64,000 nt of DNA from an uncultured delta proteobacterium (GTDB lineage Bacteria; Desulfobacterota; Binatia; UBA9968), in NCBI GenBank assembly GCA_963847445.1, contig CAWJZV010000048.1, forward strand, positions 128,001 to 192,000, read 5' to 3'. Below the pieces are notes generated by a model. The model did no database searches. It was given only the letters and a program-made list of their open reading frames with translations, and was not told where the DNA came from. Of the stretch, positions 36,172 to 63,334 are shown one piece after another (the stretch's first letter is position 1; the number at the start of each line of letters is the position of its first letter). The position numbers and the translations under genes are program-made.

Positions 36172-36173
36172 CC

Positions 36174-38038: not shown

Positions 38039-38042
38039 ACCC

Positions 38043-41955: not shown

Positions 41956-42109
41956 ACATCCGATTGCTATCTAGCCGTGCGGGACCGAGCTGGTCTCCCG
42001 TCGCTGGGAAGGTTGTAAAATTTTTACTTGCAATGTATCGGCGAAATGCCTAGTTTCTTGTCGCACCTCGTTCTAGACAAAAGAAACATACTATTTGAGG
42101 AGGAATCCC

Positions 42110-43372
42110 ATGACTTCATTTCCGAATTTTATGCGGACAATGGCAGTCACCGCCATCCTCGGAACTTTGTCGATGAGCGCGCCGCCAACCTCACGGTCCC
42201 AGGAAAAACCTGCGCCCAACGTCCAGCCAGCGCCGACGACGGTGCCCGGCCGTCCAGACATTCCCAATGCGGAGGTGGCGAAAACTTTGCGCGGCGTGCC
42301 GCAGCCGCCGTTCGCCACACCGGCGGAGAAATTACAGATCGGCCAGCTGAAAATGCCCAAGGGCTTCAAGCTCGAGGTTTATATCAGCGGCATCGCCAAT
42401 GCCCGCTCGTTGCGCATCGGCGATAAAGGCACGGTGTTCGTCAGCAACCGCCAACTCGACAAGGTCTATGCCGTCGTCGAGCGTAGCGGCAAGCGCGAAG
42501 CCAAGGTCATCGCCTCCGGCCTCGACCGGCCCAACGGTCTCGCCTTTCACAACGGCACGCTCTACATCGGCGAGGGCACAAAAATCTCCAAGCTGGAACG
42601 GATCGAAGACAATCTCGACAATCCCGGCAAGCCGGTGGTCATCTACAGCGACCTGCCCAATCACCAGTCCCATGGTTGGAAGTTCATCGCCATCGGTCCG
42701 GACAACAAGCTCTACATAAACGTCGGCGCGCCATGCAATATCTGCGAACCGCCGGCGGAAAATGCCCAGATCCGCCGCATCAATCTCGACGGCAGCGGCG
42801 CGGAAGTGTTCGCCCGCGGCGTGCGCAACTCGGTCGGCTTCGACTGGCATCCGATCACCAAGGATCTCTACTTCACCGATAACGGCCGCGACTGGCTGTC
42901 GGAAGATTTGCCGGAAGATGAATTGAACCGCGTCACCAAAGTCGGCCAGCACTTCGGCTTCCCCTACTGTCACCAGGGCAACTTCACCGACCGCGAGATG
43001 GGCTGGGGCCGATCCTGCGACGAATTCACCCCGCCGGTGGCGTTGATGGGGCCGCACAGCGCCGCCCTCGGCCTGCGCTTCTACACCGGCACCATGTTTC
43101 CCCGCGAATACCGCAACGCCCTCTTCATCGCCCGCCATGGCTCGTGGAACCGCACCAAGAAAATCGGCGGCGATATCGTTGTCGCGAAGTTGAACGTCGA
43201 CGGCACGGTAAAATCCGTGCAGCCATTTATCACAGGCTTTCTCAACAACAACGAATACTGGGGCCGGCCGGTCGACGTCCACGTCATGAAAGACGGTTCG
43301 ATGTTGATCTCCGACGATTTCGCCGGCGCGATTTACCGCGTCACCTACAGCCCGCAGATTGCCAGTCGTTAA
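42110..43372 (+). CDS. PQQ-dependent sugar/sorbosone dehydrogenase family protein
   Basis: Signal peptide, HGWKFIAIGPD, GAPCNIC, GVRNSVGFDWHP, HGSWNR, GRPVDV. Confidence 0.9.
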   Translation: MTSFPNFMRTMAVTAILGTLSMSAPPTSRSQEKPAPNVQPAPTTVPGRPDIPNAEVAKTLRGVPQPPFATPAEKLQIGQLKMPKGFKLEVYISGIANARSLRIGDKGTVFVSNRQLDKVYAVVERSGKREAKVIASGLDRPNGLAFHNGTLYIGEGTKISKLERIEDNLDNPGKPVVIYSDLPNHQSHGWKFIAIGPDNKLYINVGAPCNICEPPAENAQIRRINLDGSGAEVFARGVRNSVGFDWHPITKDLYFTDNGRDWLSEDLPEDELNRVTKVGQHFGFPYCHQGNFTDREMGWGRSCDEFTPPVALMGPHSAALGLRFYTGTMFPREYRNALFIARHGSWNRTKKIGGDIVVAKLNVDGTVKSVQPFITGFLNNNEYWGRPVDVHVMKDGSMLISDDFAGAIYRVTYSPQIASR

Positions 43373-43406
43373 GAACTCACGGCAGCCGCCGCGGCCGGCT
43401 CCGGCG

Positions 43407-44020
43407 GTGCACGCTGGCCAATCTCCATTGCAACGCCAATATCGTTCGCGCTCTGGCCGCGGCGTCTCTTCTACTGGTCGCGGCGCTCACGGCACCTGCA
43501 GCGACCGCGGCAACCATTGATGAACGGCTCGCGCCTTGCCTCGCCTGCCATGGCGAAAAGGGCCAGTCGCTCATCCCCGAAGTGCCGTCTCTCGGCGCCC
43601 AACCGGTTTTTTTTCTGTCCGTGCAGCTGCTGATGTTCCGGGAAAAAATGCGCAACCTCGAGCCCATGACCGGCATGATGCAAGGCTGGAGCGACGACGA
43701 CCTGCGCCGCGCCGCGGCGGCGATCGCGAAACTGCCCGCGCCAGCGCACAATCCGAGCGCGCATGATCCCGCTCGCGCCGAAAAGGCCCGCGCCTTGATC
43801 CAGCAAAACCGCTGCAATTTTTGCCATAAACAGGACTTTTCGGGAGAGGAAAACGCGCCGCGTCTGGCCGGCCAACGAGAAGATTACTTGCTAAAAGCCC
43901 TACGCGAGTACAAGAACAATAGCCGGCGCGCCTACGACGCCGTCCATGGCCGACGCGCTCCATCCGCTCACCGACGCCGACTTTCAAGACCTCGCCCACT
44001 ATCTGAGCCGTCTGAGGTAA
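43407..44020 (+). CDS. Diheme cytochrome c4/c553 (frameshifts at both ends)
   Basis: CLACH..PSLGAQ and CNFCH..PRLAGQREDYL; signal peptide; start position uncertain. Confidence 0.85.
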
Positions 44021-44046
44021 TCGAGCAGCTTCACTGCGAAGAGGGT

Positions 44047-44129
44047 TTCACCACGAAGGCACGAAGGACACGAAGGTTTCGGATGATTAATATTCCGAAC
44101 TTCGTGATCTTCGTGTCCTTCGTGGTGAA
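44047..44129. repeat. Intact CACGAAG-periodic palindromic element between convergent genes
   Basis: ttcaccacgaaggcacgaaggacacgaag ... cttcgtgatcttcgtgtccttcgtggtgaa. Confidence 0.9.
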
Positions 44130-44194
44130 CATCTAATTTCTTATTTGTTGCCGCTGTGCCGCGCTGCGCTCTTTGCGGTTAAATCTTCGAGTCC

Positions 44195-45073
44195 CTACTT
44201 CCACCAACTGATCAAAACGACCCCGCTGATGATGAGCAACGTGCTGACAACGATGCGCAGCGTCACCCGCTCGACGTCGCGTAGGAACAGCGCGGTGAGG
44301 ATCAGCGAAAACAACGGCGCGGTGCTGCTCAAGGGAATCACCACCGAGACTTTGCCGAGATCCAAAGCGTGGTAGATCGACGTCATGGCGAAGCTGACCG
44401 TGATTCCGGCGGCGAGAAACCACCAGACGCACTGGCGATTCATTTTCCAGCTCTCTTGAGTCTTTTCGACGTACCACATCACCAGCAGCGAAACGATCAA
44501 CGACGAAGTCGCGGTGACTGCGGCGGCGAGAAACGGATGGGGCACGGCGGCCATGCCGAACTTGCGCACCACCTGAGACGCGCCCGCGAGCGCCGAGGCA
44601 GCGATGGGAAACCAGAGATAGACCGCCGAGCCGGCGAGCTTCATCGCCCCGTGGCGCCACGACAACAGCGTGATGCCGCCGATGATCATCAGGGTCGCGA
44701 CAATGATCGGCAAGGTGATCTCCTCGCCGAGAAAGACGATCGCCATGGCCGCGCTGAACAGCGGCGTGCTGGCGCGGATCGGATCGGTGATCGCCACACC
44801 CAACGCATCGATGCCCTTGTAGGTGAGCAATCGTGTCAGGCCGGGCTGAAAGAATCCGACACCGACGAAAATCAGCAACGAAGCCAGCGTTACATTGGCC
44901 ATCGGTACGAACAGCAACGCCATAGTCCAGAGAAAGACGATATTGATCAGCAGAGTGCTGATCACGCCGGTAGCCGGGTTCGAGTAGCGCAACGCCTTTT
45001 TCATAAAGATGTTGTGCACTGCGAACAAGAAAGCGTTGGCAAGGGCGTAGAACTCAGCGGGAATGGAACTCAT
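44195..45073 (-). CDS. DMT/EamA family transporter
   Basis: Two EamA-like repeats, about 10 TM; FLGEEIT and FLRDVERVT motifs. Confidence 0.88.
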   Translation of the reverse strand: MSSIPAEFYALANAFLFAVHNIFMKKALRYSNPATGVISTLLINIVFLWTMALLFVPMANVTLASLLIFVGVGFFQPGLTRLLTYKGIDALGVAITDPIRASTPLFSAAMAIVFLGEEITLPIIVATLMIIGGITLLSWRHGAMKLAGSAVYLWFPIAASALAGASQVVRKFGMAAVPHPFLAAAVTATSSLIVSLLVMWYVEKTQESWKMNRQCVWWFLAAGITVSFAMTSIYHALDLGKVSVVIPLSSTAPLFSLILTALFLRDVERVTLRIVVSTLLIISGVVLISWWK

Positions 45074-45275: not shown

Positions 45276-45385
45276 ATTTGTCTATTTCCGGGAAGCCAAG
45301 ACGAAGATGCTACTGCGCTGCGAGGCTATCCTGAACCAGGTCGAAGGACCGGGATGACAGATTACCACCTGAGGACAGACCGCAT

Positions 45386-47242
45386 TCAATTCTCAGCGCT
45401 GGCGAGAATGACATCGGCGGCCTTCTCGCCGACCATATAAATCGCGCTGACGATAAAAAAGCCGGGGATGCGCGGAAACACCGAAGCGTCGACGACGCGC
45501 AGTCCTTGCGTGCCATGGACGCGGAAATCGCTGCTCAGGACGCCGCCCTTGTCTCTGGGGCCGATCGCGCAGCTGCACGAGGCATGATGTCCCCAGGCAT
45601 TGTCGCGCACGAATTCTCGCAACTCATCGTCGGATTGATATTGTTCGCCGGGCAACTTCCTCCGCGGCGATCAGCCCTTGTTCGCGCAAATCCTTGGTCA
45701 TCGCCCGGACAAATTGAATTCCCTCGACGACGGCGTCTAAATCCTTGCCCTGGCGATCGCTGCCTTCGTCGAAATACCTGAAGTCGATGTTTGGCGGCTG
45801 GCGTGGATCGGCGGATCGCAGCGTGACCGTGCCGGCGCGGTTGATCGTGCGCGCCTTCAGAACGATCCAACTCAAGTAGTTCTGCCGCTCGGCGATCAGT
45901 TTCGAGTAGCCGGGGAAATAACCGCGGAAGTTGCCCACCAGACCGGCGCAAAGCAGATCAGGAATCTGATCCTGTTTCGACTGCTTGACCACCGCCAACA
46001 CGCCGCCGTTGGTGGTATAGACGCCTTTTTTTCGCGTCAGCCACTCATGAAACTGTGAATCGCCTTTGGCGAATTTAGCGCTGGCCAGCATTTGCCAATC
46101 CTCTTTCATGCGATTGACCACGCTAACCTCGTAGCGGTCTTGGAGATTCTTGCCGACTCCGGCCAGATCCACCCTGGCGTGTCGATGCCGCTGCGGGACA
46201 ACTCCTCGCGCGGACCGATGCCGGAGAGCATCAGCAGTTGCGGCGTATTGAACGCGCCGCCGGACAGAATGACTTCACGAGTGGCGCGCGCCTGACGCAG
46301 TTCGCCGGGGCTTTCGCTGCAATTGGCGTGGGCTCGGTACAGCCGCTCGCCTTTGAGATATTCCACCCCGGTGGCCCGTTGTTTGCTGTCGAGCAAGACT
46401 CGAGTAGCCAGCGCATGACACTCGACTTGTAAGCGCTCGGGAAATTTTTCGGCGACGCTGACAATCCGTTCGCGGCTGCCGATCCGCGTATGGTCACGGG
46501 TCGTCAACGGCACGAGACGCAGGCCTGACGCGTTACCCTTCACCTGGCGCCAATCGTTAGGATCGGCGCGGGTTTTAAAGAAACTGCGCAAACGTTTCAG
46601 GCGATGGCCGATCTGCGCCGATGCGTCCTGCGCCAGCTCTTCCAACACTTTGCGCAGGTGGCGGTTGCCCAAAGATTCCATCGGCATGGCCACTTCGGTG
46701 GTGAGCCAACCGTCGAAGCCATGCCGAGCCGGATTGAAGCCGGTCAAACCGGCGATCCAGCGTTTCAGCGGCCGATGCCGGCAGTCTTCAAGAAGCTCGA
46801 AGTAGCGGCGCATGTTGTCCGCGCGCCACGACGAGTCGCCGGTCAATTGCGCAATGTCGTCCCAGTCCTGGTTGTGCGGGTAGACGAAGATCATGGCGTT
46901 ATGCGCCGTACAACCGCCGAGCGTGCCGGCGCGCGGATAGAGCACGCCTCCTTGGGCAGCGCTGTACTTAGTATCTTTAAGTTGGCGTTGCTCGTCGGCA
47001 TAATGGCGCACGAAGAAATCCCAGCGCATCGCTGGATTCTCCGAAGCGAAAGCGTGAAAAGCCGGAACTTGGTAGTCTTCTGGCAGCCGCGGATCGGCGA
47101 GCTCGCCAGGATCGCCGCCGGCTTCGAGCAGCAGCACGGAGCGGCCCGCTTCGGCCAAGCGCGCCGCCACTGTGCCGCCGCCCGCTCCCGAACCGACGAC
47201 GATGTATTCGTACGCGCGCGCGCCAGCGGGGGCTTCGGACAT
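45386..47242 (-). CDS. GMC family FAD oxidoreductase (frameshifts near 46175 and 45655)
   Basis: GSGAGG, YPRAGTLGGCTAHNAM, GGAFNTPQLLMLSGIG, VGKNLQDR, WGHHASCSC, LRVVDASVFP. Confidence 0.92.
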
Positions 47243-47268
47243 GGGATCGAAACTGCGCGACAGTGCGG

Positions 47269-49665
47269 TTAAAACGTTTTCAAGAATTCGATCAGCGCGC
47301 GCTTGTCTTCGTCGCTCAACGCCGGCCCTTCTTTAGACAGGGCCGTGCCGAAATAGTGACCCTTGTTGACCACGAAGTCAGGACACTTGCTCACCTTCAA
47401 CAAGTCCGGCACCAAGCCTTTGAAAACTTCAGCAGCCTCTTTTTCGCTCTTGCCTTCGACCGCCTTCAGATCGGCCTTGATCTTGAGCAACAGTTTGGCG
47501 AGATCGAGCTTGCTGCTATCGAGATCGATATTGGACAGCAAATTCACCGGCGTCCCTTTCGGGATGGGACCGATCTCGATGCCCTCTTCACTGAAAAGCC
47601 AGGGGAACCAGCGGTTGAGCCAGCCGCCCCAGCTGAGCATTTTTTCCAATAGCGGCGAGACAAAACCTGGCGCGATCTTGATGTAGCTGGTCTCCGTGGT
47701 GCGATAGATAAAGCCCGGCACTTTGTCGCCGAGAAGCGGATCCTTGTCGCGCTTCTCCGGCCAGAGCATCTTCTCGATGGAGTCGTTGAACGAATCCATG
47801 CGCCCCTCGACGGACGGACTGGAGTTAAACTTGCCCACTGAGTTGTTCAACAGGAACGGCGCCGTCGACCACAGACCGATCAACGATGGCACGCGCGTAT
47901 AGCCGCGCCCGCCCGCGGGCATTTCGTATTCCCAGGGACTGCCGTCGATGGGATTGTGCACGGTCAGCTTGCCCACCGATGGCAAATCCTTATAACTCTG
48001 GGAGGAAAAGTTGTCCCAAATATTGCCCCCGAGAGCGTTAGTCGCCAGCGGACTGCAAGCGTTGGTCTGCAACAGCGTCACCGGGATGCGCCGCTCCGTG
48101 GAGAGATAGTTGTCCGCGAGAAAATCGTCGGCCAAGACCTTCTCGGTCATCTTTTTCTTGAAGTCGTCGGTCTTGCTCCAGGCCCAGTATTGGTCCCAGT
48201 TCTTGTCGTCCACTCCCGCCGGCGCATCGGGAATCTTGCTCGAATGGCAGCGCGCGCAGTTCTCGGCGAAGACGACTTTGCCGCGCTGGAGCGTCGCCTT
48301 ATCCTTGCTCAGAAACTTCTCCCCGCCGGGCGCATCCTTCAACAGATCAGGTTTTGCCGACTTGAGAAAAAACAGCGCGACATCCGGGGTCTGCTCCTGG
48401 GTGGCGTTCCAATAGCTGGAATTCTTATTGGCATCGGCGATTTGGATCGGCGTCACTTTTTGGCCGCCGACCAAGGCGTTGAAATGGAGCAGCCATTCCT
48501 CACTGAACAATCCGATGTTGATATAGACCCGATTCAAGGCGCCGAGGATGCCGACCGAGTCGGCGCCGTCTTTCAAAACATGCGCGGTCCAAACTTTGTC
48601 CGGCTCTTTGTAATACTGCGGCAGCACGGCGGTCTGCTTATAGTGTTGGAACTGCTTATTGTTGACACCGCCGCCGGCGAGTTTCTCCTCGCCCCAACGC
48701 TCGGCGATCTTGAGCCGGGCGCCGACGTTGTAGACCGCGTTCATCGTGCGCGGGTTGTTGATGTAATCGGTCGACACGAACGAAGTATCGAGGGTTCCCG
48801 GCAACGAGGTGTGGATCAACTGGTAAACGAAATTCGCCGAATCTTTTTCCCAGAACAGCACGCGGTCGACCCAAAAATATTGCGAGCCGGGATTGGAGTT
48901 GATGTTTTCCCACTTGGGATTCTCCGGATCTTCCGGCGGTTTTACCGGGCTCGGCCCGACATGGCAAAAGCCGCAAGACATGCCGACGCGGTAGGGGCGC
49001 ACCAGATTCTTGTCGTTGTAGTATTTCGGGTCGGTGTAAAATCTTTCCGCATCCCATTTCTTGGCCGCCGCTTCATCGAAATCCGGATTGGGAAACAAGC
49101 GCAGACCGAGGACTCCGGTGGCATAGCCGTAATAAGAACCGACCGGCAGATTCTTGCCGCGCGCGCCGATTTTCACGCCGGGATATTTTTGCTCATTTTC
49201 AAAAGGGTCGGCGGGACAATCCTTGCTCCGGGTGTCGAGCCATAAGCCAAAGCGGTCGGCATTGGGCCCCTTGGGCTTTTCGAAACAAGGCTCGTTGACT
49301 ACACCGAGATACTCCCAGCGTTTGTCACGCGTCAGATGCGGCACCTTGGGATGCGACGAAATTATTTTCAACAGGTCGACGACGCCGAAACTTTTACTGA
49401 TCAGATGGTCCCAGAAGCGGTCATTGCCGCCGGTCCAGACGATCCAGTTGTTGCGTCCTTTGACTTCCTCGCTGGTGAGCGCGACAGCGCCATCCATAGC
49501 TTTGAAATAATCTTCATCGGCGGCGGGAAAACTTTTCGCGTCGCGCCCGGCTAAGAGCGCTTCGTCTTTGACGCTTCCAGGCTCTGGCGGTTTCTTGCCG
49601 CACGCCGCGGCAAGCAGCGCGGTCACCAGCAGCACCAACAGGCTCTTCGACAGATAGCGGTTCAT
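47269..49665 (-). CDS. Large diheme cytochrome c lipoprotein (RoxA/bCcP-MauG-like)
   Basis: Lipobox LAAAC; CGFCH and CARCH heme sites; PSLIGLWSTAPFLLNNSVG; C-terminal GHYFG..LSDEDKRALIEFLKTF. Confidence 0.8.
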   Translation of the reverse strand: MNRYLSKSLLVLLVTALLAAACGKKPPEPGSVKDEALLAGRDAKSFPAADEDYFKAMDGAVALTSEEVKGRNNWIVWTGGNDRFWDHLISKSFGVVDLLKIISSHPKVPHLTRDKRWEYLGVVNEPCFEKPKGPNADRFGLWLDTRSKDCPADPFENEQKYPGVKIGARGKNLPVGSYYGYATGVLGLRLFPNPDFDEAAAKKWDAERFYTDPKYYNDKNLVRPYRVGMSCGFCHVGPSPVKPPEDPENPKWENINSNPGSQYFWVDRVLFWEKDSANFVYQLIHTSLPGTLDTSFVSTDYINNPRTMNAVYNVGARLKIAERWGEEKLAGGGVNNKQFQHYKQTAVLPQYYKEPDKVWTAHVLKDGADSVGILGALNRVYINIGLFSEEWLLHFNALVGGQKVTPIQIADANKNSSYWNATQEQTPDVALFFLKSAKPDLLKDAPGGEKFLSKDKATLQRGKVVFAENCARCHSSKIPDAPAGVDDKNWDQYWAWSKTDDFKKKMTEKVLADDFLADNYLSTERRIPVTLLQTNACSPLATNALGGNIWDNFSSQSYKDLPSVGKLTVHNPIDGSPWEYEMPAGGRGYTRVPSLIGLWSTAPFLLNNSVGKFNSSPSVEGRMDSFNDSIEKMLWPEKRDKDPLLGDKVPGFIYRTTETSYIKIAPGFVSPLLEKMLSWGGWLNRWFPWLFSEEGIEIGPIPKGTPVNLLSNIDLDSSKLDLAKLLLKIKADLKAVEGKSEKEAAEVFKGLVPDLLKVSKCPDFVVNKGHYFGTALSKEGPALSDEDKRALIEFLKTF

Positions 49666-49961
49666 GTAAACTCCCTTTCAGCGAGAAGTCATTATCAAAG
49701 TAACAGGGTGAGATTTGAAACTTATCCGGCGATTTTCCTGAAAAATACCGCAAGTCATAGGGATATGGCAAGAAAATTTGTAAAAACGCAGCTCAGCCAA
49801 CCGAGTTCCCGGCGAATTTACCCAGCAGGATACACCGTGGCGAGTGTCACACAGCTGCAACGGTTGCCTGGAAGTTCATTAGTGGCGTATATTACGAAAA
49901 CTTAGATAGCCGATGAACTCCTCACTTGGTATGGACGGTTACGCGCGAGAAACTGGTAAAC

Positions 49962-51177
49962 ATGGCAAATAGCCAACAACAGCGCCGACCGACGGCGCCG
50001 CCGGTGCTCAAATTATTGCACGAGACGCTCTTCGCGCTGCTCAAAATCGAACGGCGCTTCGATCCGTTTTTCCGCCCGGCACTCGACGCAATTGTTCCAA
50101 GAGCCGCTGGCGCGCGGTCTGCAATTTCTCACCAACTTGTTGCGCGACAAGGAAACTCTGGGACTCGCCGAAGAGCGCAAACTGCCCGACGAAGAGGCGT
50201 ACTTGGATTCAATTATCAGCGAGATGACCGCCTACATGCGGGAACTTTACCAACCCGGCAGCTACCAACGCGGCGGCAATACTAAAACCCATGGGGTTGT
50301 CCGTGGTGAATTCACCGTGCGCGGCGATCTGCCCGCACCCTATCGCCATGGCGTGTTCGCGCAGGCACGGACATTTCCCGCCTGGGTGCGCTTTAGCGGC
50401 CCAGGGCCAGCCTCGCCAGCCGATATCGATGACGTCGGCGTGCTCAGCATCGGCATCAAACTCATGGGCGTGCCAGGGCAGAAACTCTTGGACGACGAAA
50501 AGTTCACGCAAGATTTCACCGGCATCACGACGCCGATTTTCACAACCCCCGACGTCAAGGAAAACGCCAAGCTCCAGGCGCGCAGCCGGGTCGGCTTGCC
50601 GCTATTCTATTTTATCAGTCCCTTCGATTCCCACCTGCTCGACGCCCTGATGCAAGGGCTATGGGCGCGCACTCATACGAGCCCGCTCGAAGCCCGTTAT
50701 TGGGGTTGTGTCCCCTATTTGCTCGGCGCCGGCACAGCGATGCAATACACGATCGTGCCAAAATCGCCACGGCGCAGCCGCGTGCCGCGCCTGCCGTTGC
50801 GCCCACCGGATGATTACCTGCGCGAAAACATGGCTGCAACCCTGAGCTCAGAAGATGCCGAGTTCGACTTCATGATTCAACTGCAAACCGACGCGCACCT
50901 TATGCCCGTCGAAAACGCCTCGGTTCGCTGGGCGGAAAATCTTTCCGCCCCTAAACCGGTCGCGACGCTGCGCATTGCCAAACAGAAATTCGACTCACCG
51001 GCGCAGCTCGCCTTCGCCCATCGGCTCTCCTACAATCCCTGGCACAGCCTCGCCGAACATCGTCCGCTCGGCAACCAGAATCGCGGCAGGAAAAGAATTT
51101 ATCAGGAACTCTCCCGCCTGCGCCAGGAGATGAACCAGACACCGCACCGCGAGCCGACTGGGGACGAGGTATTCTGA
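49962..51177 (+). CDS. Small catalase-like heme protein (frameshift near 50092)
   Basis: RGGNTKTHG, AWVRFS, IGIKLMGV, PYLLG, FMIQLQ, LSYNPWH..HRPLG..NRGRKRIY (proximal Arg/Tyr). Confidence 0.85.
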
Positions 51178-51198
51178 GCAGTCTGAATAATTACTTCG

Positions 51199-52090
51199 AT
51201 GGCAACCGGTATCGAGCAAAGACGCGTCAAGGCTAACGGCATCGACTTCAATGTCGCGGTCTCGGGCTGCGAGCGACTCTCCTGCCATTTTCTGCTTGCA
51301 CGGCTTTCCAGAAGGCTCGATCAGTTGGCGACCGGTGATGGAAGCGCTGCCCGAGGCGCGATTCTTTGCGCCCGACCTGCGCGGCTACGGCCCCACCGAT
51401 CATCCGCGCGACGGTTACGATGTCTTCACCTTGACCGACGACATCAAGGCGTTGATCGAAGCGCTCGGCGTCGATAAACCGGTGCTGGTCTGCCATGACT
51501 GGGGCGGCGCGCTGGGATGGATATTCGCGCACCGCTTTTCGCACCTGATTCGCAAGCTCGTGGTTATCAATTGCACGCATCCAGAGACGCTGGTCCGCGC
51601 CGTGCTCCATTTCGAGGATTTCCAGACGATTCGGATTCCGTGGGTGCCGTTTTTCCAGATCCCATGGCTTCCTGAAGCATTTTTTGCAACAGAGCTAGGG
51701 AGAAAACTTCTGAAACTCTCTTTCACGCTGCGCGAGGGCCGCACCGGGACGATGAACGTAAAGCTTGTCGACGAGCTCGTCGCGCGTTTCCAAAATCCCG
51801 ACGACCTGCGCGGGCCGATCGAATATTACCGCGAAATGGTGCTCACCCAGCTGGTGCCGAGCCGGCGGGCGAAACTCGCGGCAGTCTACCGCACACCGAT
51901 CACAGTCCCGGTGACGCTGGTGTGGGGCGCCGAGGATGGCGCGCTGTCTGCCCGGGTAGCGATGAACAGCGCCATCGATGCGGGCTGCGAAGTCGAATGC
52001 CGGCCTCTTCCCGGGGTCGGCCACTTCGTGGGCCTGGAGGCGGCCGACAAATTGGCCGGTGAGATCAGGCGCGTGCTGATTGAGAGTTGA
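51199..52090 (+). CDS. Alpha/beta hydrolase, epoxide-hydrolase type (frameshift near 51275)
   Basis: LHGFPE oxyanion motif, PDLRGYG, HDWGG (Asp nucleophile), IEYYR, WGAEDGAL, GHFV. Confidence 0.88.
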
Positions 52091-52284
52091 CGTCTAGTGA
52101 ACTCAGACTCTGCGAAATTTGTCGATGTCACGAACGCCTGCTGGGGGCGCGCCACATTGCCGGTTGCAGCAAACATTTCCCAGCACTCGCGGTATCGTGA
52201 GCTTCGCTCCAGCGCCGCAGGCGACACTGCAATCGGCGCGGCAAGTAAACAAGCCACTTCGCGTCCGGGGTAGTCGCCCCGCCG

Positions 52285-52364
52285 GCGACCAAAGGGAATG
52301 CTCGCCCCCTTTGGATGTTCCATTTAATGGTGCCCGCAGCAAGCTGAGGGTATGTTTAGATTTA
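52285..52364. repeat. Structured direct repeat of about 80 bp, copy A (3' of the DyP gene)
   Basis: gcgaccaaagggaatgctcgccccctttggatgttccatttaatggtgcccgcagcaagctgaggg..tagattta; matches 53928-54007. Confidence 0.85.
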
Positions 52365-52366
52365 TC

Positions 52367-53872
52367 TCAATCGCCCAGTGAGGCGAGGTACCACAAGGCG
52401 CGAATGCTCGGGAGAAAAAAATAGCCGCCGCCGCGCACCGTGACAAATTGCGGCAGACCATGGATACGCCGTGGCAGACCGGAATCCTGGGGGATGGAAA
52501 ACGCATCCGTGACGGGACAACCGGGAATCGGCTGGCGGTTCCCCATCAATGGATCGCTCTCGCCGGACAGGCCATCGAACTTGGTCGCCATTACCCAAGC
52601 GTTTTGCACGAACTCGAACTGTCGCGCGATGTTGGCGTTGATGCAGATGAAGTAAAGCCCACGCTCGTGGTCGTCGACCGCGCCGCCACTCAGCGCCTGC
52701 GCGCGTGACAACGCGCTTCCATAACCCCGGCCGCGCCGGACAATTCGATGGAAGCGCGTCGAAGATACCAGATCGTCACGAAAACTTTTGCGATGGAAGC
52801 CCAAGGTACGCATGAGCCACTGGAACCAGCCCTGGGTGCCGTACGGCAAATCGCCGTTACGGGGATTCACCCGGCGAATATGGGCACCGAACGGGCAGCG
52901 AGTGCCGTCGCTGTCCGATTCATAGGTGAATCCGTCCAGCTTCATGGCATCATTCGCAGCCTGATCGGCGCTGGCAAACTGGCCATTGGATAGCGACACA
53001 AGCGGTTCACCGTTCATGCGCCGACCCACCATGGCTTCGGCAAGTTTAGTTTGATCCACGACATTGCCCTCGGTCTGTCGATCGAGGAAGCGCCAGAAAC
53101 CCGCGACATCCTGTGCCAACTGTCGCAAAACAAGATAACTGCCATTGCGCCCCAGATCTCTTTGGTCGGTAAACTCAGCCGCTGGCAACAAGCCAGCAGT
53201 GCTATCGTCGCCGCCGGGGAGCAAGGGCCGGTCGCAATATTTGCCATATTCGTTTGGATAGCCGAGGAGGAACTCCCCCAACGCCGTCAGGTTGCTGTAT
53301 TCGGGCTGATCGCCGGGCAGTTTTTTCGTTTGATCCCAGTCCAGCTGCGGCTGGCTAATGCCATCTTTGAAACCAAACGGTTCGGTGTCGCTTAAGTCCG
53401 CGCTTGGCAAGCATTGCAAAACCGTGAAGGCATCATCCCAAGAGCCGTTCTGCACGGCATTCTGCCAGCGCTCGAGAGCGCCCGCTTGGGCGTAGAGCAT
53501 GACGAGCAAGTGCGGCATTTTTTCCGCGCCGCCCCAATGCCATTGCGACGGCGCGTTCGCTGCGATATCGCCCAACCGGCGCGAACGGCTTTCTTCGCCG
53601 GCCATGCCGGAAATAAATTCCGGAGAAAACTTCTCAAGGATCGGCCGCGGCAGGCCAATGGCGTCGAGTCCTTCGCCGGTAAAGGCCACTTGCAGCGCGT
53701 GTTGCGGCGGCGGCGCGACCGCCGTGGCATTGGTCACCGGCGCCGTCCGCAGCCAGGATCGAGCCGCGGCGGGATTCTTGATCCGCAATAGGAAAAAACC
53801 AGCCGCCGGCAAGTGGCCGTAACCGTATCGGACGATGCCTTGCACATCGCTATAGTCGATGATCGCGCTCAT
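52367..53872 (-). CDS. Dye-decolorizing (DyP-type) heme peroxidase
   Basis: DVQG, PFGFKDGISQP (GxxDG), GSYLVLRQL, PFGAHIRRVNPR, RIVRRG, QFEFVQ, GGGYFFLPS. Confidence 0.92.
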   Translation of the reverse strand: MSAIIDYSDVQGIVRYGYGHLPAAGFFLLRIKNPAAARSWLRTAPVTNATAVAPPPQHALQVAFTGEGLDAIGLPRPILEKFSPEFISGMAGEESRSRRLGDIAANAPSQWHWGGAEKMPHLLVMLYAQAGALERWQNAVQNGSWDDAFTVLQCLPSADLSDTEPFGFKDGISQPQLDWDQTKKLPGDQPEYSNLTALGEFLLGYPNEYGKYCDRPLLPGGDDSTAGLLPAAEFTDQRDLGRNGSYLVLRQLAQDVAGFWRFLDRQTEGNVVDQTKLAEAMVGRRMNGEPLVSLSNGQFASADQAANDAMKLDGFTYESDSDGTRCPFGAHIRRVNPRNGDLPYGTQGWFQWLMRTLGFHRKSFRDDLVSSTRFHRIVRRGRGYGSALSRAQALSGGAVDDHERGLYFICINANIARQFEFVQNAWVMATKFDGLSGESDPLMGNRQPIPGCPVTDAFSIPQDSGLPRRIHGLPQFVTVRGGGYFFLPSIRALWYLASLGD

Positions 53873-53927
53873 TTATCCTCGCGTCCAAATAAACAAGAAT
53901 TTCGCCTGCGGGGCATTAACCCCGCAC

Positions 53928-54007
53928 GCGACCAAAGGGGATGCTCGCCCCCTTTGGATTCCCCATTTAATGGTGCCCGCAGCAAGCTGCGGGGAATATT
54001 AGATTTA
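53928..54007. repeat. Structured direct repeat of about 80 bp, copy B (5' of the DyP gene)
   Basis: gcgaccaaaggggatgctcgccccctttggattccccatttaatggtgcccgcagcaagctgcgggg..tagattta. Confidence 0.85.
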
Positions 54008-55306
54008 AATCAGTTTTAACCATCGGCGGATCTCATCGTCGCTCATGAAGTTTTTCGTCAGCCCCTCGCGAATTCGGCTATTGATCTCCAGGTCGAATGC
54101 AGTGAGTCCTGGATGGGCGTTGTACCAGACCTCGGTTGGCAGCTGATGCCGGCGAATATAATTCTTAAACTTCTGTTCATCCTTGGCGCCCTGCAAGATC
54201 AGCCAATTGGTCCGGGGATAACCGACGCCGTTACTGAAGACAAGATTCAGCCCCCAGCCGACTTTGTTGATGAAATCGTCCATGTAGCCTTCCAAGCTGC
54301 CGTCGTAATTGCTGGCGAAGAATAGACGGGTTTTGCCGTCGAGAAATACCCAACGGGCAAAGTGAATCGTACCGACACGGGTAAGATGGCCGCGGCGATA
54401 AAGATGGCGGGCGCCGTAGTCGAGTATCCAAACAAAGAAACTTACCGTCCAGCGGCGAAACAGACCGGGCTTGACGGCGCCGATGGCGCTAAACTGATTG
54501 GTCACGTCGTGATCTTCCAGCCCGGCGAGCCGCCGTACATGATCTCGATCCGGCCTTGGGGCAATCTCCGGATCGGCGGTCTCGCGCCGCCGCAGCTGAT
54601 AGGCAAAAACCGGCAGATAGAGAATCAACCACGGTGCGAGAAATATTAAAACAACAGGCACGCCCAAAAGATGCAGCAGATTACCGATTCGCCAGCCGAT
54701 CGGGGTGGCCGCTGCGGGTGACAACGTCAGGCGCTGCGCCGCGATCTCGTCATCGACAAACGCGATCAGTTTCTGCCAAATTATTCGCGGCTCCTGGAGT
54801 GCGAAGTCGGCCGTTTGACCGGCAAGATAACTCACCAGGGCATGGTGCAGAGCGCTCTCTTCATGAATCTGCGCCACTGTGCGTCCGATCCAATTGACGT
54901 ACATCGCGGCAGGGCGCTGCGAGTGATCCTTCAGCCACTGCAACAGGTCATCCGTCGAGCCGAGCCCTTCGCAGTGGGAAAAGATCTGCCGCAACCCCTT
55001 ACCGGCGTGGCGCACCAAGGACTCGAGAAAATCATCACCATCGCCGTCGCAATCGCCGAGAAAGAGCAAGGAAGGCTGCAACGGCAGCGGCGCGATACCA
55101 TGCTGTCTGATATCTTCGCGAGTAGGATCGTCGAGAATCACCAACCGGGCAAAATGCAGTTGGCCAAACCGCGCAAAGGGCAGGATCGAGTTTAACGGAT
55201 CGACGACACCGGGACGTGAGTTCAGCGATTCTAATAGTTCACTCAATGCAGCTTGCCGGCCGGCAGCGATCGGCGCGACCACCATGAAATGGGACTGAGG
55301 CGTCAC
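54005..55306 (-). CDS. Uncharacterised protein next to the DyP gene, with two HFAR-motif domains separated by a TM segment
   Basis: LHFARLVIL..LFLGDCDG and IHFARWVF..FFASNYDGSLEGYMDDF; central hydrophobic helix. Confidence 0.75.
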   Translation of the reverse strand: MTPQSHFMVVAPIAAGRQAALSELLESLNSRPGVVDPLNSILPFARFGQLHFARLVILDDPTREDIRQHGIAPLPLQPSLLFLGDCDGDGDDFLESLVRHAGKGLRQIFSHCEGLGSTDDLLQWLKDHSQRPAAMYVNWIGRTVAQIHEESALHHALVSYLAGQTADFALQEPRIIWQKLIAFVDDEIAAQRLTLSPAAATPIGWRIGNLLHLLGVPVVLIFLAPWLILYLPVFAYQLRRRETADPEIAPRPDRDHVRRLAGLEDHDVTNQFSAIGAVKPGLFRRWTVSFFVWILDYGARHLYRRGHLTRVGTIHFARWVFLDGKTRLFFASNYDGSLEGYMDDFINKVGWGLNLVFSNGVGYPRTNWLILQGAKDEQKFKNYIRRHQLPTEVWYNAHPGLTAFDLEINSRIREGLTKNFMSDDEIRRWLKLI

Positions 55307-55381
55307 AGCGATTCTCGATTACCCGCGCGGATTGCCCATGAATAGCAAAGAACGACAGAGAGACAGGGTTGCTCCGAGCAT

Positions 55382-55813
55382 TTAAAACTTGAGCGCGAAA
55401 TCGATCAGCCGGGTCTTGTCCCAATAAACTTTTCCCAGGTAGAGTCCCGGTTCGATCTCGCGAATCTCGTCGCGGATCCACTGCGCGACGATCGAGGTAT
55501 CCGAGTAATCGAGCACGATGCATTCTTTGCCGTCGAGCCAGCTCGGCCCCTTGTAGACTTTGGCGAGGATGGCGTTGAGACCGAAGGGCAGGATTTTGTT
55601 CTTCAACACGCCCTTTTTGGCGTCGAAGACTTTGCCTTGCCAGGCGAAGTGACTGACGAAACTCGCAATATTCGAACTAAAACTCGTTCCGGGGGCGACA
55701 ATCGCGGTGCCCTCGGCTTCGCCGTCGGGAATTTTGCCCACCGGACTGTTAGTGAAAAGCGTGTCGAGCTCAGCTTGCGACATGCTCAAAAGTTTAGCGA
55801 CATCGTACGCCAT
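55382..55813 (-). CDS. Hypothetical protein (WQGKVF motif)
   Basis: GGAG RBS; AWQGKVFD, SWLDGKECIVLDYS, IRDEIREIEPGLYLGKVY. Confidence 0.8.
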   Translation of the reverse strand: MAYDVAKLLSMSQAELDTLFTNSPVGKIPDGEAEGTAIVAPGTSFSSNIASFVSHFAWQGKVFDAKKGVLKNKILPFGLNAILAKVYKGPSWLDGKECIVLDYSDTSIVAQWIRDEIREIEPGLYLGKVYWDKTRLIDFALKF

Positions 55814-56851: not shown

Positions 56852-57844
56852 ATGAAGAGAAGAATCGGTTTCGGGTTACTGACAGCTGCCTTGCTGACTA
56901 CTCCGATACTGACCGAGGCGCAGCAATCCGTCAAAACTCGCACGGATAGGGTTCCTCAGTAACGCCTCTCCCGCGGCGATCTCGGCACGCACGGAGGCAT
57001 TTCGGCAGGGGCTGCGCGAGCTTGGATACGTGGACGGAAAAAACATTGTCATTGAGTACCGATATGCAGAGGGGAGTGTCCGAACGTCTCGCCGCATTCG
57101 CGGCCGAACTTGTGCGTCTCAACGTGGAAGTCATCGTCACTACCGGCGCGACGGTAACCCGCGCCGCCAAGGAAGCAACTGCTATGACTTCCATTGTGAT
57201 GGCGCAGGATATCGATCCTGTTAACAACGGATTTGTCGCTAGCCTGGCGCGGCCGGGCGGTAACATCACTGGACTGTCAACGCTTCACCCGGAGATTAGC
57301 GGTAAACGACTGGAGCTGTTAAAAGAGATCGTTCCTCGGCTGTCGCGTCTAGCCGTCCTCGGCACCTCAACGGTCCCAGGCAACGCACAATCGCTTAAAG
57401 AAACCGAACTCGTCGCGGCGGCGTTCAAGGTGAAGGTTCAATACCTAGACGTGCTAGGTCGTCGCTGATATTGAGCGTGCATTCCGGGAGGCGAGCAAGG
57501 GGCGTGCTGACGCGATCCTGGTGTTTACCGGTCCTGTGTTCAACTCTCGTCGAGCACAAATTGCGGACTTCGCGGTAAAGAGTCGTCTGCCAGTCACATA
57601 TCCACAGGACGAGTACGTGGAAGACGGGGGGCTTATGAGCTACGGCGTGAGTTTCACTGATTTGTTTCGCCGCGCTGCTACGTATGTCGACAAGATTTTG
57701 AAAGGCAGAAAGCCCACCGACCTACCGGTGGAGCAGCCGATCAAGTTCGAGTTCATCGTCAATCTGAAAGCTGCCAAGCAAATCGGCCTGACGATTCCGC
57801 CGAATGTCTTGGTGCGGGCGGATAGAGGTGATTCGGTGAGGTAA
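56852..57844 (+). CDS. ABC substrate-binding protein (PF04392 type), array copy 1, frameshifted
   Basis: [61 protein letters not shown]. Confidence 0.85.
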
Positions 57845-57902
57845 ATATAAATAACATCGGTCTGCAGTCAGTTGTCAGTAAAAAACATCGAATACTATAT
57901 CC

Positions 57903-58888
57903 ATGACTGAAATTATTCTCTTCTTGCTACTAGCGAATGATCTTTTTGACTACGTGCCCTCCACGTTTCCGCGCAGCTACCAACGAAAATCCCTCGGATT
58001 GGATATCTATCTGCTGCATCCGCCTACGACTAACTCGGTCCGCATTGTATCATTTCGGCAGGGCCTTCGTGACTTGGTTACGTGAGGGGAAAAACATTAT
58101 CATTGAACTGCGTTTTGCCGAGGGAAAATTCGATCGTGTCCCCGCGCTAGCGACTGAACTAGTGCATCTCAAAGTAGACATCATCGTCTCGACTGCTTCG
58201 ACAGTAACCCGTGACACGAAGGCAGTAACTTCAACGATTCCCATTGTTATGACAAATGATAACGATCCAGTTGCTAACGGGTTCGTCGCCAGCCTGGCGC
58301 GTCCTGGTGGAAACATAACTGGATTATCGACCTTGTCTCCAGAATTTAGCGGAAAACGACTAGAACTTTTGAAGGAAATCGTTCTAAAACTCTCACATGT
58401 GCGATCCTCGCATCTTCGACCGAACCGGCAACGCAGCAAATGTTAAAAGAGCTGGAACTCGCCGCAGCTGCGTTCGAAGGTAAAGCTGCAATACCTAGAC
58501 GTACTAAATCCCAAGGATTTTGAGCCCGCTTTTCGAGCCGCAACAAGGGGCGGGCTGAAGCTGTCCTTATGCTGTCGAGTCGAAATGATGAATTCTCAGC
58601 GAACACAGATTGTAGAACTTGCGGTAAAGAGCCGGCTCCCAGCGATTTATCGAAAGAGCTGAATTTGTCGAAGCCGGCGGGCTCATGACCTACGGCGCGA
58701 ACTTTTCCGATTTGTACCGGCGCGCCGCTACGTATGTCGACAAGATTCATGAAAGGCGCAAAGCCTGCTGATCTTCCAGTCGAGCAACCGATCAAGTTTG
58801 AGTTCATCATCAATCTCAAAGCTGCGAAGCAGATCGGCCTGACGATTCCGCGAATGTGTTGGTGAGAGCGGATCGGGTGATTCGGTAA
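57903..58888 (+). CDS. ABC substrate-binding protein (PF04392 type), array copy 2, heavily frameshifted
   Basis: The same motif set across at least six frame changes; may be a pseudogene. Confidence 0.75.
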
Positions 58889-59083
58889 TGACATAGAGAT
58901 ATAAAAGCGAAAGAGTTAGATTGAAATCGTTGTCATTTCGAAACCAAAAAGGGAGAAATCAAATGTTTAAATAGCTAATCCACTCGCATTCGTCAATGAC
59001 GATATAGCAATCTCGCACAAAAAAAAAGAACACCGCAAAGGGCATGGAGCAAAGCGCCAAGCACAAGAAACCGGAGAAAACTC

Positions 59084-60070
59084 ATGAATAAAACGAGTCA
59101 TTGGCCTAGCGCTTTGCGCTTTGCTCTTCGCGCTTAGCGTCTCCACACAGGCGCAGCCGCCGAAAACATTCCGCGCATCGGCTTCCTGGCTGCCGGCTCC
59201 GCGGGCGTCGGTGACCAGCCGCATCGAGGCGTTTCGCGCTGGTCTGCGCGAGTTGGGTTACGTTGAAGGTAAGAACCTTGTCATCGAGGAGCGCTATGGC
59301 GATGCCAAGATCGAGCGCGTCCCTGAGTTGGCGGCGGAACTCGTGCCGCTTGAAAGTCGATGTGATCGTCACGGGAGGTTCACAAGCGACTGGACCGGCG
59401 AAGAAAGCCACTTCAACCATTCCCATCGTCATGGCGCAGGACAACGACCCGGTCGGCTCCGGTTTCGTCGCGAGCCTGGCCCAGCCCGGCGGCAATATCA
59501 CCGGCTTGGCCAATCTCAACTCCGAGCTAAGCGGTAAACAACTTGAGGTCTTGAAAGAAAGCTTTCCTAAACTCAGTCGCGTGGCGATTTTGAGCGACAT
59601 GTCGGAGCCCGGCAGCCAACAGCCGGTGAAGGAAACCGAGCGCGCCGCCAAAGCGCTTGGAGTCGAGCCCCACTATTTGGACATACGCGCGCTCAAGGAC
59701 TTCGATGGTGCGCTGATTTCGGCACGCGCCAAAAAACGTCGACGCGCTGCTGGTGCTACCGAGCGCGCTGTTCAATGCCCATCGCAAACAACTGGTCGAG
59801 CTGGCGGCAAAGCTTAAGCTCCCGGCGATGTATCCCAGAGCAGATTACGTCGACGACGGCGGCCTGATGACTTACGGGATCGATGTCAACGACCTATCGC
59901 GCCGCGCCGCGATCTTTGTCGACAAAATCTTAAAAGGCGCTAAACCGGCCGTTATCCCAGTAGAGCAACCTGAGAAGTTCGACCTTATCGTCAACTTGAA
60001 AACCGCCAAGCAGCTCGGCGTCACCATACCTCCTAACGTATTGGTGCGAGCGAGTCGGGTGATTCGATGA
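59084..60070 (+). CDS. ABC substrate-binding protein (PF04392 type), array copy 3, frameshifted
   Basis: EAFRAGLRELGYVEGKN, DPVGSGFVASLAQPGGNITG, GGLMTYG, IPVEQP. Confidence 0.85.
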
Positions 60071-60125
60071 AACACTGCAAAGCGGATGGAGCAAAGCGCC
60101 AAGGGTAAGACGCCGGAGAAAACTC

Positions 60126-61716: not shown

Positions 61717-61800
61717 GTGTCCGAACTGAACTCTAGCAACCGCTCCGACAAATCCGGTCTGTCATTTTGCATTTTGCACTTTTCATTCTGCAATCTGCAT
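61717..61800 (-). pseudogene. N-terminal remnant of a four-helix-bundle (23S IVS/bAvd-like) gene with its heptamer leader
   Basis: MQNEKCKMQN-DRPDLSERLLEFS, then loss of similarity; CATTTTG-type 7-mers at 61763-61800. Confidence 0.55.
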
Positions 61801-61809
61801 TGGATCCTA

Positions 61810-63165: not shown

Positions 63166-63184
63166 GAAGTCTCCCAATTAGCTC

Positions 63185-63332
63185 GTTCAAATCGTTCAAG
63201 CCGTTCAAGTCGTTCAAGCCCCCGCTTTCTTCGAAGCGGAACCGGGTGAGTTTCCTCCCCCGCGTCGCGGGGGAGGAGCAAGGAGGGGGTTTGAACGGAG
63301 CGTAGCGATTGAACGGCTTGAACGTTTTGAAC
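63185..63332. repeat. Composite element: 9-bp periodic GTTCAA/TTGAAC arms enclosing a CCTCCCCCGCGTCGCGGGGGAGG palindrome
   Basis: Seen directly between tldD and pmbA. Confidence 0.85.
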
Positions 63333-63334
63333 TC

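Follow-up and report, generated by a model that had tools for sequence, protein, structure and literature searches.

A 64,000-nucleotide stretch of DNA from an uncultured delta proteobacterium of the Binatia (contig CAWJZV010000048.1, positions 128,001 to 192,000; hereafter the window) carries an island of seven contiguous genes between positions 45386 and 55813. The island encodes a dihaem c-type cytochrome, a GMC-family oxidoreductase, a catalase-fold haemoprotein, an epoxide-hydrolase-like enzyme, a DyP-type peroxidase and two proteins of undescribed families, here called u163 and u433. It is one copy of a widespread, uncharacterised cluster that occurs in many soil and water bacteria. A listing of open reading frames (ORFs) and family scans recovered all seven genes, in the three transcription units outlined in a preliminary description of the window:

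47242..45386, minus strand: GMC-family flavin adenine dinucleotide oxidoreductase (PF00732 and PF05199); second gene of the dihaem-GMC unit.
49665..47269, minus strand: dihaem c-type cytochrome lipoprotein, 798 amino acids; first gene of the dihaem-GMC unit.
49666..49952, no strand: divergent intergenic region of 287 bp between the dihaem-GMC unit and the catalase-hydrolase unit.
49953..51177, plus strand: catalase-fold haemoprotein, about 407 amino acids, from alignment to a 96%-identical homologue of 407 amino acids and from a Foldseek fold match.
51199..52090, plus strand: alpha/beta-fold epoxide-hydrolase-like enzyme (PF00561), about 297 amino acids; 22 nt after the catalase-fold gene.
53872..52367, minus strand: long-form DyP-type haem peroxidase, 501 amino acids; last gene of the u163-u433-DyP unit.
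55306..54005, minus strand: 433-amino-acid protein of the undescribed family u433; middle gene of the u163-u433-DyP unit.
55813..55382, minus strand: 143-amino-acid protein of the undescribed family u163; first gene of the u163-u433-DyP unit.

The ends of the island coincide exactly with the stop of the GMC gene (45386) and the ATG of the 143-residue protein (55813). The u163-u433-DyP unit is convergent to the catalase-hydrolase unit in the ORF listing of the window. Judging from the layout, the promoters of the two divergent units presumably lie within 49666..49952. The grouping of these genes goes beyond chance, because it is conserved in 80 loci and because several of the genes are naturally fused, as detailed below.

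Conservation of the island was assayed from the catalase-fold gene. Relatives of this gene were confirmed 294 times in species-representative genomes; the best 80, each with flanks of 10 kb, were retained, and all locus counts refer to these 80. Components were counted by tblastn at E<=1e-10, and a greedy clustering of ORFs was discarded, as it produced spurious antisense clusters in high-GC genomes. Record titles assign the 80 loci to at least nine phyla: Methylomirabilota, Binatia, Thermodesulfobacteriota, several classes of Acidobacteriota, Alpha-, Beta- and Gammaproteobacteria, Actinomycetota (many Streptomyces), Chloroflexota, Cyanobacteria, Gemmatimonadota and Verrucomicrobiota. The DyP gene was detected in 77 of them, u433 in 75 and u163 in 68, and all four core genes (u163, u433, DyP and catalase-fold) were present in 68. 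The core was complete in 51 of the 54 loci that were at least 20 kb long, and 9 of the 12 loci with an incomplete core were shorter than 15 kb. The GMC and dihaem genes were each found in 38 loci and together in 36, 33 of which were core-complete.

Gene order and strands vary by lineage. In Streptomyces the genes lie on one strand in the order u163-u433-DyP-catalase, while the order in Alphaproteobacteria is dihaem-GMC-catalase, followed by the other unit in convergent orientation. Thus, proximity has been maintained through rearrangement. Co-clustering in other genomes had been named beforehand as the point on which the proposal of a coordinated pathway could be refuted; it was found across many phyla, in rearranged orders and with three of the genes fused.

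The fusions were characterized by mapping the window proteins on long relatives. Among 46 long proteins that contain u433, a DyP segment lies behind u433 in 45, 13 carry an N-terminal cytochrome P450 domain and one is a catalase-fold-u433 fusion. Eight triple fusions join u433, DyP and the catalase-fold protein (P0241, P0243, P0244, P0246, P0254, P0258, P0268 and P0270), and u163 and u433 form a single in-frame ORF in two Streptomyces loci (L048 and L078). No other evidence speaks as strongly as these natural fusions for u433, DyP and the catalase-fold protein functioning as a single physical unit. In a plasmid collection, full-length u433 was absent (none of 51 records covers at least 80% of it), and fused giants were present; annotated examples are a protein of 1443 amino acids from Novosphingobium aromaticivorans and one of 1620 amino acids from Sulfitobacter pontiacus. 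More generally, giants of 1400-1620 amino acids, in which the C-terminal half of u433 is joined to a P450-like domain and a complete DyP, were seen in Novosphingobium, Sulfitobacter and Mesorhizobium, some of them on plasmids (L081:3907-8238, L082:3913-8775; P0255-P0267, P0273 and P0283).

Three of the genes are interrupted in the window. The GMC gene is spread over three ORFs in two frames (47242..46106, 46172..45624 and 45655..45386), with two frameshifts near 46179-46182 and 45653-45658. A two-frame alignment to the homologue of 407 amino acids placed the first 47 residues of the catalase-fold protein in the other frame, at 49953-50093, with one frameshift near 50094-50097. The window ORF of the hydrolase is some 15-20 residues shorter than its orthologs, its start being shifted by a frameshift near 51267; the true start comes from the other-frame ORF 51199..51477 plus the indel at 51267. 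The indels were checked over 45300-51300 against Logan contigs from four public runs of three studies, 90-99% alike. Relative to the window, these contigs lack a single base at each of three places, namely 45653/45658 (4 of 4 runs), 50094/50097 (3 of 3 covering runs) and 51267 (2 of 3), and two bases at 46179-46182 (3 of 3 covering runs). One of the four breaks resembles a shortened G run. The source genome is an assembly of 48 contigs, 91.8% complete and with 6.9% contamination. Since contigs of other runs lack the breaks, and since other genes of the window are split likewise, the four indels are most likely consensus errors of the assembly, and the genes are intact in nature. Pseudogenisation was rejected as the cause, the indels being absent from the contigs of other runs.

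The other split genes of the window are a GH3 gene (35973-39727), a GSDH-type dehydrogenase overlapping a cytochrome c ORF (42095-44136), pieces of ABC transporter substrate-binding genes (57022-60890) and PmbA/TldD pieces across three ORFs (61733-63899). At 35973-39727, an ORF of 980 amino acids combines a Haem_oxygenas_2 iron-containing redox domain, an enolase-superfamily MR_MLE_C domain and a GH3 N-terminal domain, and the middle and C domains of GH3 lie in the adjacent ORF. Because the assembly contains indel errors, this ORF perhaps represents two or three genes joined or split; the region may be a small-molecule conjugation cluster. The five ORF pieces at 57022-60890 all match PF04392 and are probably two or three tandem paralogs with frameshifts.

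The catalase-fold protein matched no Pfam or NCBIfam family at E<=0.01, catalase models included, so that the Pfam Catalase and NCBIfam models do not place it among the true catalases. Sequence and profile searches gave no PDB match either. Its fold was therefore assigned from an AlphaFold model (predicted local distance difference test, pLDDT, 68.4; predicted template modelling score, pTM, 0.76), with which Foldseek returned 184 PDB matches at E<=0.001. The top match was the allene oxide synthase 1u5u (6e-11), followed by 3dy5, 3e4y and 3e4w and then by true catalases. The 33-kDa catalase-related protein of Mycobacterium avium (MAP) was also among the leading matches, ahead of the true catalases.

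The putative active site was examined by alignment. The protein contains the motif GNTKTHG, whose Thr66-His67 pair is invariant in 22 of 22 close relatives; T66, H67, R333 and Y337 are all invariant in the close-relative alignment. True catalases have Val-His on the distal side. On the proximal side, R333-x3-Y337-x6-R344, comprising the Tyr and its Arg partners, is kept in 80 of 81 catalase-fold sequences, and this spacing matches that of catalases. Family-wide, T66 is present in 80 of the 81 sequences, and position 67 is His in 36 and Tyr in 45; in the latter, the GNTKTHG of the window reads GNTKTYG (orthologs in L030-L080), so that Tyr stands at the site of the essential His of catalase relatives. 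The distal assignment of T66 and H67 follows from the motif position and from the numbering of the coral allene oxide synthase (cAOS); T66, H67 and N137 of the coral enzyme touch the hydroperoxide and Y353 ligates the haem (PMC5617202). The coral catalase-related domain turns the hydroperoxide into allene oxide or aldehydes (PMC5617202). The product of the gene had been called catalase-like, and the model agrees with this: it has a catalase fold, the nearest solved structures are the coral allene oxide synthase and the MAP catalase-related protein, and the distal pair is Thr-His, not Val-His.

These features bear on a rival function, generic peroxide defence, in which DyP and the catalase-fold protein would remove H2O2 made in part by the GMC enzyme while the other genes were bystanders. 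Two core proteins do have peroxide-using haem folds, and NCBI names relatives of the catalase-fold gene 'catalase family protein'. Nevertheless, the missing Pfam Catalase and NCBIfam catalase matches and the Thr-His pair in place of Val-His make such a role improbable, as do the strict linkage and fusion with two proteins of undescribed families and the presence of a fatty-acid alpha-dioxygenase in 39 of the 80 loci (see below).

The DyP protein passes the PF20628 threshold (27.1 bits, cut-off 20) and remains under that of TIGR01413 (80 bits, cut-off 100.5). In a PDB sequence search its closest solved relative was 8re3 (9.6e-45); an ancestral D-type DyP, fungal DyPs, Anabaena 5c2i and Amycolatopsis DyP2 also matched, the range being 1e-44 to 2e-18. 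The catalytic residues of DyPs are the Asp of GxxDG, a proximal His and a distal Arg. Across 19 orthologs, no change was seen at H331, R333 and R334, which lie in the motif AHIRR, or at R417, and D170, the Asp of FGFKDG, is conserved to at least 90%. Neither an export signal nor a hydrophobic segment was detected in this protein.

The 433-residue protein had no Pfam or NCBIfam match. Its AlphaFold model is of high quality (pLDDT 87.6, pTM 0.88) and shows a tandem ABM/ferredoxin-like barrel, with two HFAR motifs in the sequence. The closest folds found by VIA-align were WhiE-ORFI (9lmn, Z 14.0, 223 residues, root-mean-square deviation 3.8), the polyketide decarboxylase Abx(+)O (9ltx, Z 11.8) and 3mcs (Z 9.6), and Foldseek agreed. 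A helical insert of about 125 residues includes a hydrophobic segment of 34 residues (205-238), predicted to be the sole membrane anchor of the core. The family is large: of 1.84 billion representatives, 4057 belong to it at E<=0.001 and 2739 at E<=1e-10, and the Atlas clusters name it only 'hypothetical protein'. As for u163, its start at 55813 agrees with 21 orthologs of about 143-155 amino acids; there was no Pfam match across 22 members and no PDB match at E<=1 with a profile.

The fold of u433 could suggest that the cluster modifies an aromatic secondary metabolite, either a polyketide or a quinone, with u433 as an ABM-type cofactor-free oxygenase, cyclase or decarboxylase and with oxidative tailoring by the haem enzymes, as the WhiE-ORFI and Abx(+)O matches would allow. 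However, a common fold shows no function. Moreover, an all-against-all comparison of ORFs from the 80 loci revealed no other widely shared family, the representatives that were scanned contain no polyketide synthase or nonribosomal peptide synthetase domains, and conservation of the core across at least nine phyla would be unusual for a specialised metabolite. We thus judge this role very unlikely. Similarly low is the probability of a role in haem or iron handling, with DyP as an EfeB-like deferrochelatase, u433 as an IsdG-like haem-degrading enzyme and the catalase-fold protein as a haem binder. JGI names fused relatives 'deferrochelatase/peroxidase EfeB', and IsdG, MhuD and HmoB are among the weak fold matches of u433 (Z 4.2-4.3). 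These Z values are nevertheless at background level, the loci contain no conserved iron or haem transporter, DyP retains its peroxidase residues, and the association with a dioxygenase has no place in such a scheme.

The dihaem protein has a hydrophobic N-terminus ending in LLAAAC-G, a lipoprotein signal, and is predicted to be periplasmic. Its two haem motifs, CGFCH (231-235) and CARCH (470-474), are conserved, with C231, C234, H235, C470, C473 and H474 invariant in 19 orthologs. It passes the PF00034 cut-off (24.5 bits, cut-off 21.3) and falls just under that of PF13442 (26.4 bits, cut-off 27). RoxA-type cleavage of C=C bonds had been suggested for this protein, but this found no significant sequence support: PF21419 (RoxA-like) was not matched at E<=0.01, a profile of the dihaem family reached RoxA 4b2n only at E 0.055, and the score with NF040606 (di-haem cytochrome c peroxidase) was 47.1 bits for a cut-off of 150. 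With the RoxC model the score was 14.8, the cut-off being 900. Some Atlas neighbours of the protein carry PF21419, with feature scores of 0.91-0.94.

The partner GMC gene matches PF00732 and PF05199 across its three ORF pieces, while NCBIfam matches to choline-dehydrogenase-like models are all under cut-off. An intact ortholog of 670 amino acids (L012:5374-7386) had choline dehydrogenase 9lq0 as its best match (5e-36) and also matched fatty acid photodecarboxylase (4e-25). No hydrophobic N-terminus was found in the GMC protein.

The co-occurrence of GMC and DyP genes resembles fungal ligninolysis, and it could point to oxidative attack on an aromatic or polymeric substrate such as lignin fragments or polyisoprene, the GMC enzyme supplying H2O2 to DyP and the dihaem protein cleaving C=C bonds in a RoxA-like manner. 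PF21419 in the Atlas neighbours and the weak RoxC and RoxA matches are in line with such an attack. However, these matches are not significant, and an extracellular polymer would be out of reach of DyP, GMC and catalase-fold proteins that carry no export signal. The core also occurs with neither the GMC nor the dihaem gene in the 28 loci that have only the dioxygenase, and we consider attack on lignin or rubber unlikely.

The hydrolase belongs to PF00561 (4e-26) and contains the motifs HGFP, of the HGxP oxyanion type, and HDWGG, which gives the Asp nucleophile its DWGG context. The top six PDB sequence matches are all epoxide hydrolases (5ng7 at 7e-28, 4nzz at 1e-24, down to 5nfq at 1.6e-23), and all NCBIfam haloalkane dehalogenase matches are under cut-off. 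Candidates for the two lid tyrosines that hold the epoxide lie in the cap region, namely the YY of IEYYRE and the Y of VYRTP. The earlier assignment as an epoxide hydrolase agrees with the closest solved relatives. On the other hand, orthologs of at least 50% identity were found in only 6 of the 80 loci, so that a route from peroxide to epoxide to diol, also put forward in the preliminary description, does not hold as the conserved logic of the cluster. The epoxide hydrolase is a lineage-specific accessory.

A gene of the animal-haem-peroxidase family (PF03098) was identified in 39 of the 80 loci. In Streptomyces it directly follows the catalase-fold gene (PF03098 at 1e-107). Over its whole length, the Streptomyces protein (L029) aligned with the rice fatty-acid alpha-oxidase 4kvj (1.3e-117) and the Arabidopsis alpha-dioxygenase (2.2e-113), and with cyclooxygenases at 1e-16. 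In L009 and L012, the loci most syntenic with the window, a version of the gene lies beside the GMC gene and has the same plant enzymes as best match (1e-53 for L009). All cluster dioxygenases carry EEFxxVYR(M/L)HP, that is, YRMH or YRLH. None of these dioxygenase genes has YRWH, the motif of the dioxygenases from Nostoc and fungi.

The dioxygenase and the GMC-dihaem pair are complementary in their distribution. Among the 68 core-complete loci, 28 have only the dioxygenase, 25 only the GMC-dihaem pair and 8 both, and in 7 neither pair is complete. No haem fatty-acid dioxygenase stands beside the catalase-fold gene in the window, as it does in the Nostoc-type pair. In five genomes whose clusters have only GMC and dihaem genes, no PF03098 gene was found anywhere in three, and the other two, both from Rhizobium, contain giant multi-repeat peroxidases only. 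The frames of the two Rhizobium genomes (G002:C6, G002:C5, G003:C22 and G003:C14; L085-L094) are 2000-4200 amino acids long with several animal-haem-peroxidase repeats each. The two PF03098 matches in the genome of the window are of a different peroxidase subfamily, for which BLAST gave no similarity to the dioxygenases of the cluster. A 619-amino-acid ORF of the animal-haem-peroxidase family in this genome (L083, G000:C6:170172-174050), with the motif AAYRFGHS, is of another subfamily and by BLAST unrelated to these dioxygenases.

Two further neighbours were noted at these positions. In Streptomyces, the alpha-dioxygenase is followed by a protein of about 970-1100 amino acids (L029:12960-16262, L039:13367-16276), for which a patatin-like phospholipase match reached 23 bits for a cut-off of 27.7. 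By tblastn with the protein of about 970 amino acids, a relative was detected in 13 loci. Nine of these are from Streptomyces and Kitasatospora and have it behind the dioxygenase; in the other four the match is partial and placed elsewhere. In the window, the GMC gene is followed after 313 bp, downstream and on the same strand, by an EamA/DMT transporter gene (44195-45073, minus strand). This transporter gene is common only to the window and its closest relative, L013 (94% identity), and it stands at the position that the alpha-dioxygenase gene has in L009 and L012.

We lean, with modest confidence, towards the cluster being a membrane-associated pathway for fatty-acid hydroperoxides. The four core proteins, namely the small soluble u163, the hydrophobic-anchored tandem ABM protein u433, the cytoplasmic DyP and the catalase-fold haemoprotein, would act as a unit on the cytoplasmic face of the membrane and process fatty-acid or lipid hydroperoxides. 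The catalase-fold enzyme would rearrange or cleave the hydroperoxide, in the manner of the coral allene oxide synthase or hydroperoxide lyase, and DyP, held beside it by u433, would use or reduce a peroxide. In many other lineages the hydroperoxide may come from the plant-type fatty-acid alpha-dioxygenase encoded in the cluster. In clusters of the window type, the dihaem c lipoprotein and its GMC partner would constitute an alternative front end that provides or prepares an oxygenated lipid, a role for which there is a precedent in Pseudomonas aeruginosa: PA2077 and PA2078 are periplasmic dihaem Ccp/RoxA-like enzymes, an oleate 10S-dioxygenase and a 7,10-diol synthase (PMC4496055). The epoxide hydrolase, as a lineage-specific addition, would open an epoxide product.

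Several observations weigh against this pathway. The presumed distal His67 is replaced by Tyr in 45 of the 80 relatives (His in 35), independently of the type of front end, which argues against one uniform allene-oxide-synthase-like chemistry. Confidence in the catalase-fold model itself is moderate (pLDDT 68), and the restricted distribution of the hydrolase orthologs is a further difficulty. The alpha-dioxygenase type is absent from the window and from L013, and with the L009 dioxygenase as query it was not found in the 91.8%-complete genome of the window. As to orthology with the characterised Nostoc lyase, the best 120 relatives of a cyanobacterial member of the catalase-fold family included Scytonema proteins and no Nostoc punctiforme protein. 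The dihaem protein misses PF21419, NF040606 and RoxA 4b2n as given above. Moreover, the MauG-type motif is PY(F/L)HNGSV (PMC4496055), and the corresponding site here reads PFLLNNSVG, which has no His, with P603, N607, N608 and G611 invariant in 19 orthologs. The absence of export signals from GMC, DyP and the catalase-fold protein, together with a periplasmic dihaem protein, would place the pair and the core in different compartments. Finally, the 80 loci, being the best of 294, are phylogenetically related, and their counts are not independent events.

The lipid substrate, also anticipated in the preliminary description, gains support from the alpha-dioxygenase homologue in 39 of the related loci. 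The interpretation given there is upheld in part as a whole, being weakened by the absence of the dioxygenase from the window and its genome and by the Tyr in 45 of 80. A different version seems possible but doubtful to us, namely that u163, u433, DyP and the catalase-fold protein form, in bacteria of many phyla and in places as one polypeptide, an undescribed membrane-anchored multi-haem assembly for fatty-acid hydroperoxide chemistry, in which the dihaem and GMC proteins replace the alpha-dioxygenase as oxygenating front end. Each of the rival explanations discussed above, from peroxide defence to haem handling, accounts for part of the gene set; none covers the strict core, the fusions and the association with the dioxygenase jointly.

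Full-text literature searches, which do not extend to subscription journals and supplements, gave no description of this gene set. What is new here is the identity of the alpha-dioxygenase, the complementary front ends, the census of fusions, the accessory nature of the hydrolase, the His/Tyr split and the read-based check of the frameshifts. Bacterial oxylipin chemistry has so far come from few cases, namely Nostoc, Pseudomonas aeruginosa and some lipoxygenases. If the doubtful multi-haem assembly with the dihaem and GMC front end does exist, fatty-acid oxygenases of the Pseudomonas c-type-cytochrome kind and bacterial oxylipin or alpha-oxidation pathways would be far commoner than known, and the family would include a catalase fold with a distal Thr-Tyr pair. 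In Pseudomonas, the oxylipin products are linked to biofilm formation and cell-to-cell signalling (PMC5155153, PMC6377657). The cluster also holds two undescribed protein families, u163 and u433, and in it an alpha-dioxygenase and a dihaem cytochrome/GMC pair are naturally exchanged for one another. The fixed partners of its long-form DyP could reveal the physiological substrate of such bacterial enzymes, a long-open question. Judging by record titles, culturable carriers include Streptomyces species, among them carriers of the dioxygenase type, Rhizobium grahamii, and, with the dihaem type, Acidisoma sp. L85 and Acidobacteriaceae bacterium KBS 89.

The cluster can be compared with several known systems. 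The long-form (C/D-type) DyPs 8re3, 4g2c and 5c2i have the Asp, His and Arg residues in common with the DyP of the window, which differs in being strictly linked, and often fused, to u433 and the catalase-fold protein. We know of no description of such partners for the solved long-form enzymes. The two ferredoxin-like halves of u433 superpose on the tandem ABM/SchA-CurD-like proteins WhiE-ORFI and Abx(+)O, with an identity of 10-12%; the helical insert with its hydrophobic segment is a feature of u433.

On the front-end side, PA2077 and PA2078 (FadCcp subfamily) are periplasmic and have two CxxCH motifs about 240 residues apart, as in the window dihaem protein; a comparison of spacing gave 239 residues for the window and 245 and 235 for PA2077 and PA2078. 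The Pseudomonas enzymes act on fatty acids and are related to RoxA and MauG (PMC4496055). They differ in length (634 amino acids for PA2077 and 624 for PA2078, compared with 798 for the window protein, a lipoprotein without the MauG-type His) and in partner, which is a second dihaem enzyme in Pseudomonas and a GMC flavoprotein in the window. The cluster dioxygenases of related loci match the plant alpha-dioxygenases (rice 4kvj, Arabidopsis 4hhr) from end to end, Tyr motif included; the window and its genome have no such homologue.

A similar gene arrangement is that of Nostoc punctiforme, whose linoleate 10S-dioxygenase/lyase pair was reportedly described by Brash et al. in 2014 (J Biol Chem 289:13101). 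There, Npun_R5469, a haem dioxygenase, adjoins Npun_R5468, a catalase-related 10S-hydroperoxide lyase, and the pair makes and cleaves the 10S-hydroperoxide of linoleate (PMC6307994, PMC13049297). The same pairing occurs in 39 of the 80 loci, where a small catalase-fold haemoprotein is encoded beside a haem dioxygenase of the peroxidase-cyclooxygenase family. The cluster differs from it in that its dioxygenases are alpha-dioxygenase-like and that the core adds DyP, u433 and u163. To our knowledge, none of these three proteins is mentioned in the Nostoc work.

Finally, the best structural match of the catalase-fold protein is the cAOS of Plexaura homomalla (1u5u, 3dy5), which has the same Thr-His distal pair and Tyr proximal ligand as the window protein. 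The two share only 14-15% identity in the structural alignment, with no match at the sequence level, and 45 of the 80 bacterial relatives have Thr-Tyr, unlike the Thr-His of the coral enzyme. Proteins of the coral allene oxide synthase/hydroperoxide lyase type (cAOS/cHPL, Capnella) are fused to a lipoxygenase, whereas the bacterial catalase-fold protein is, in some cases, fused to u433-DyP.

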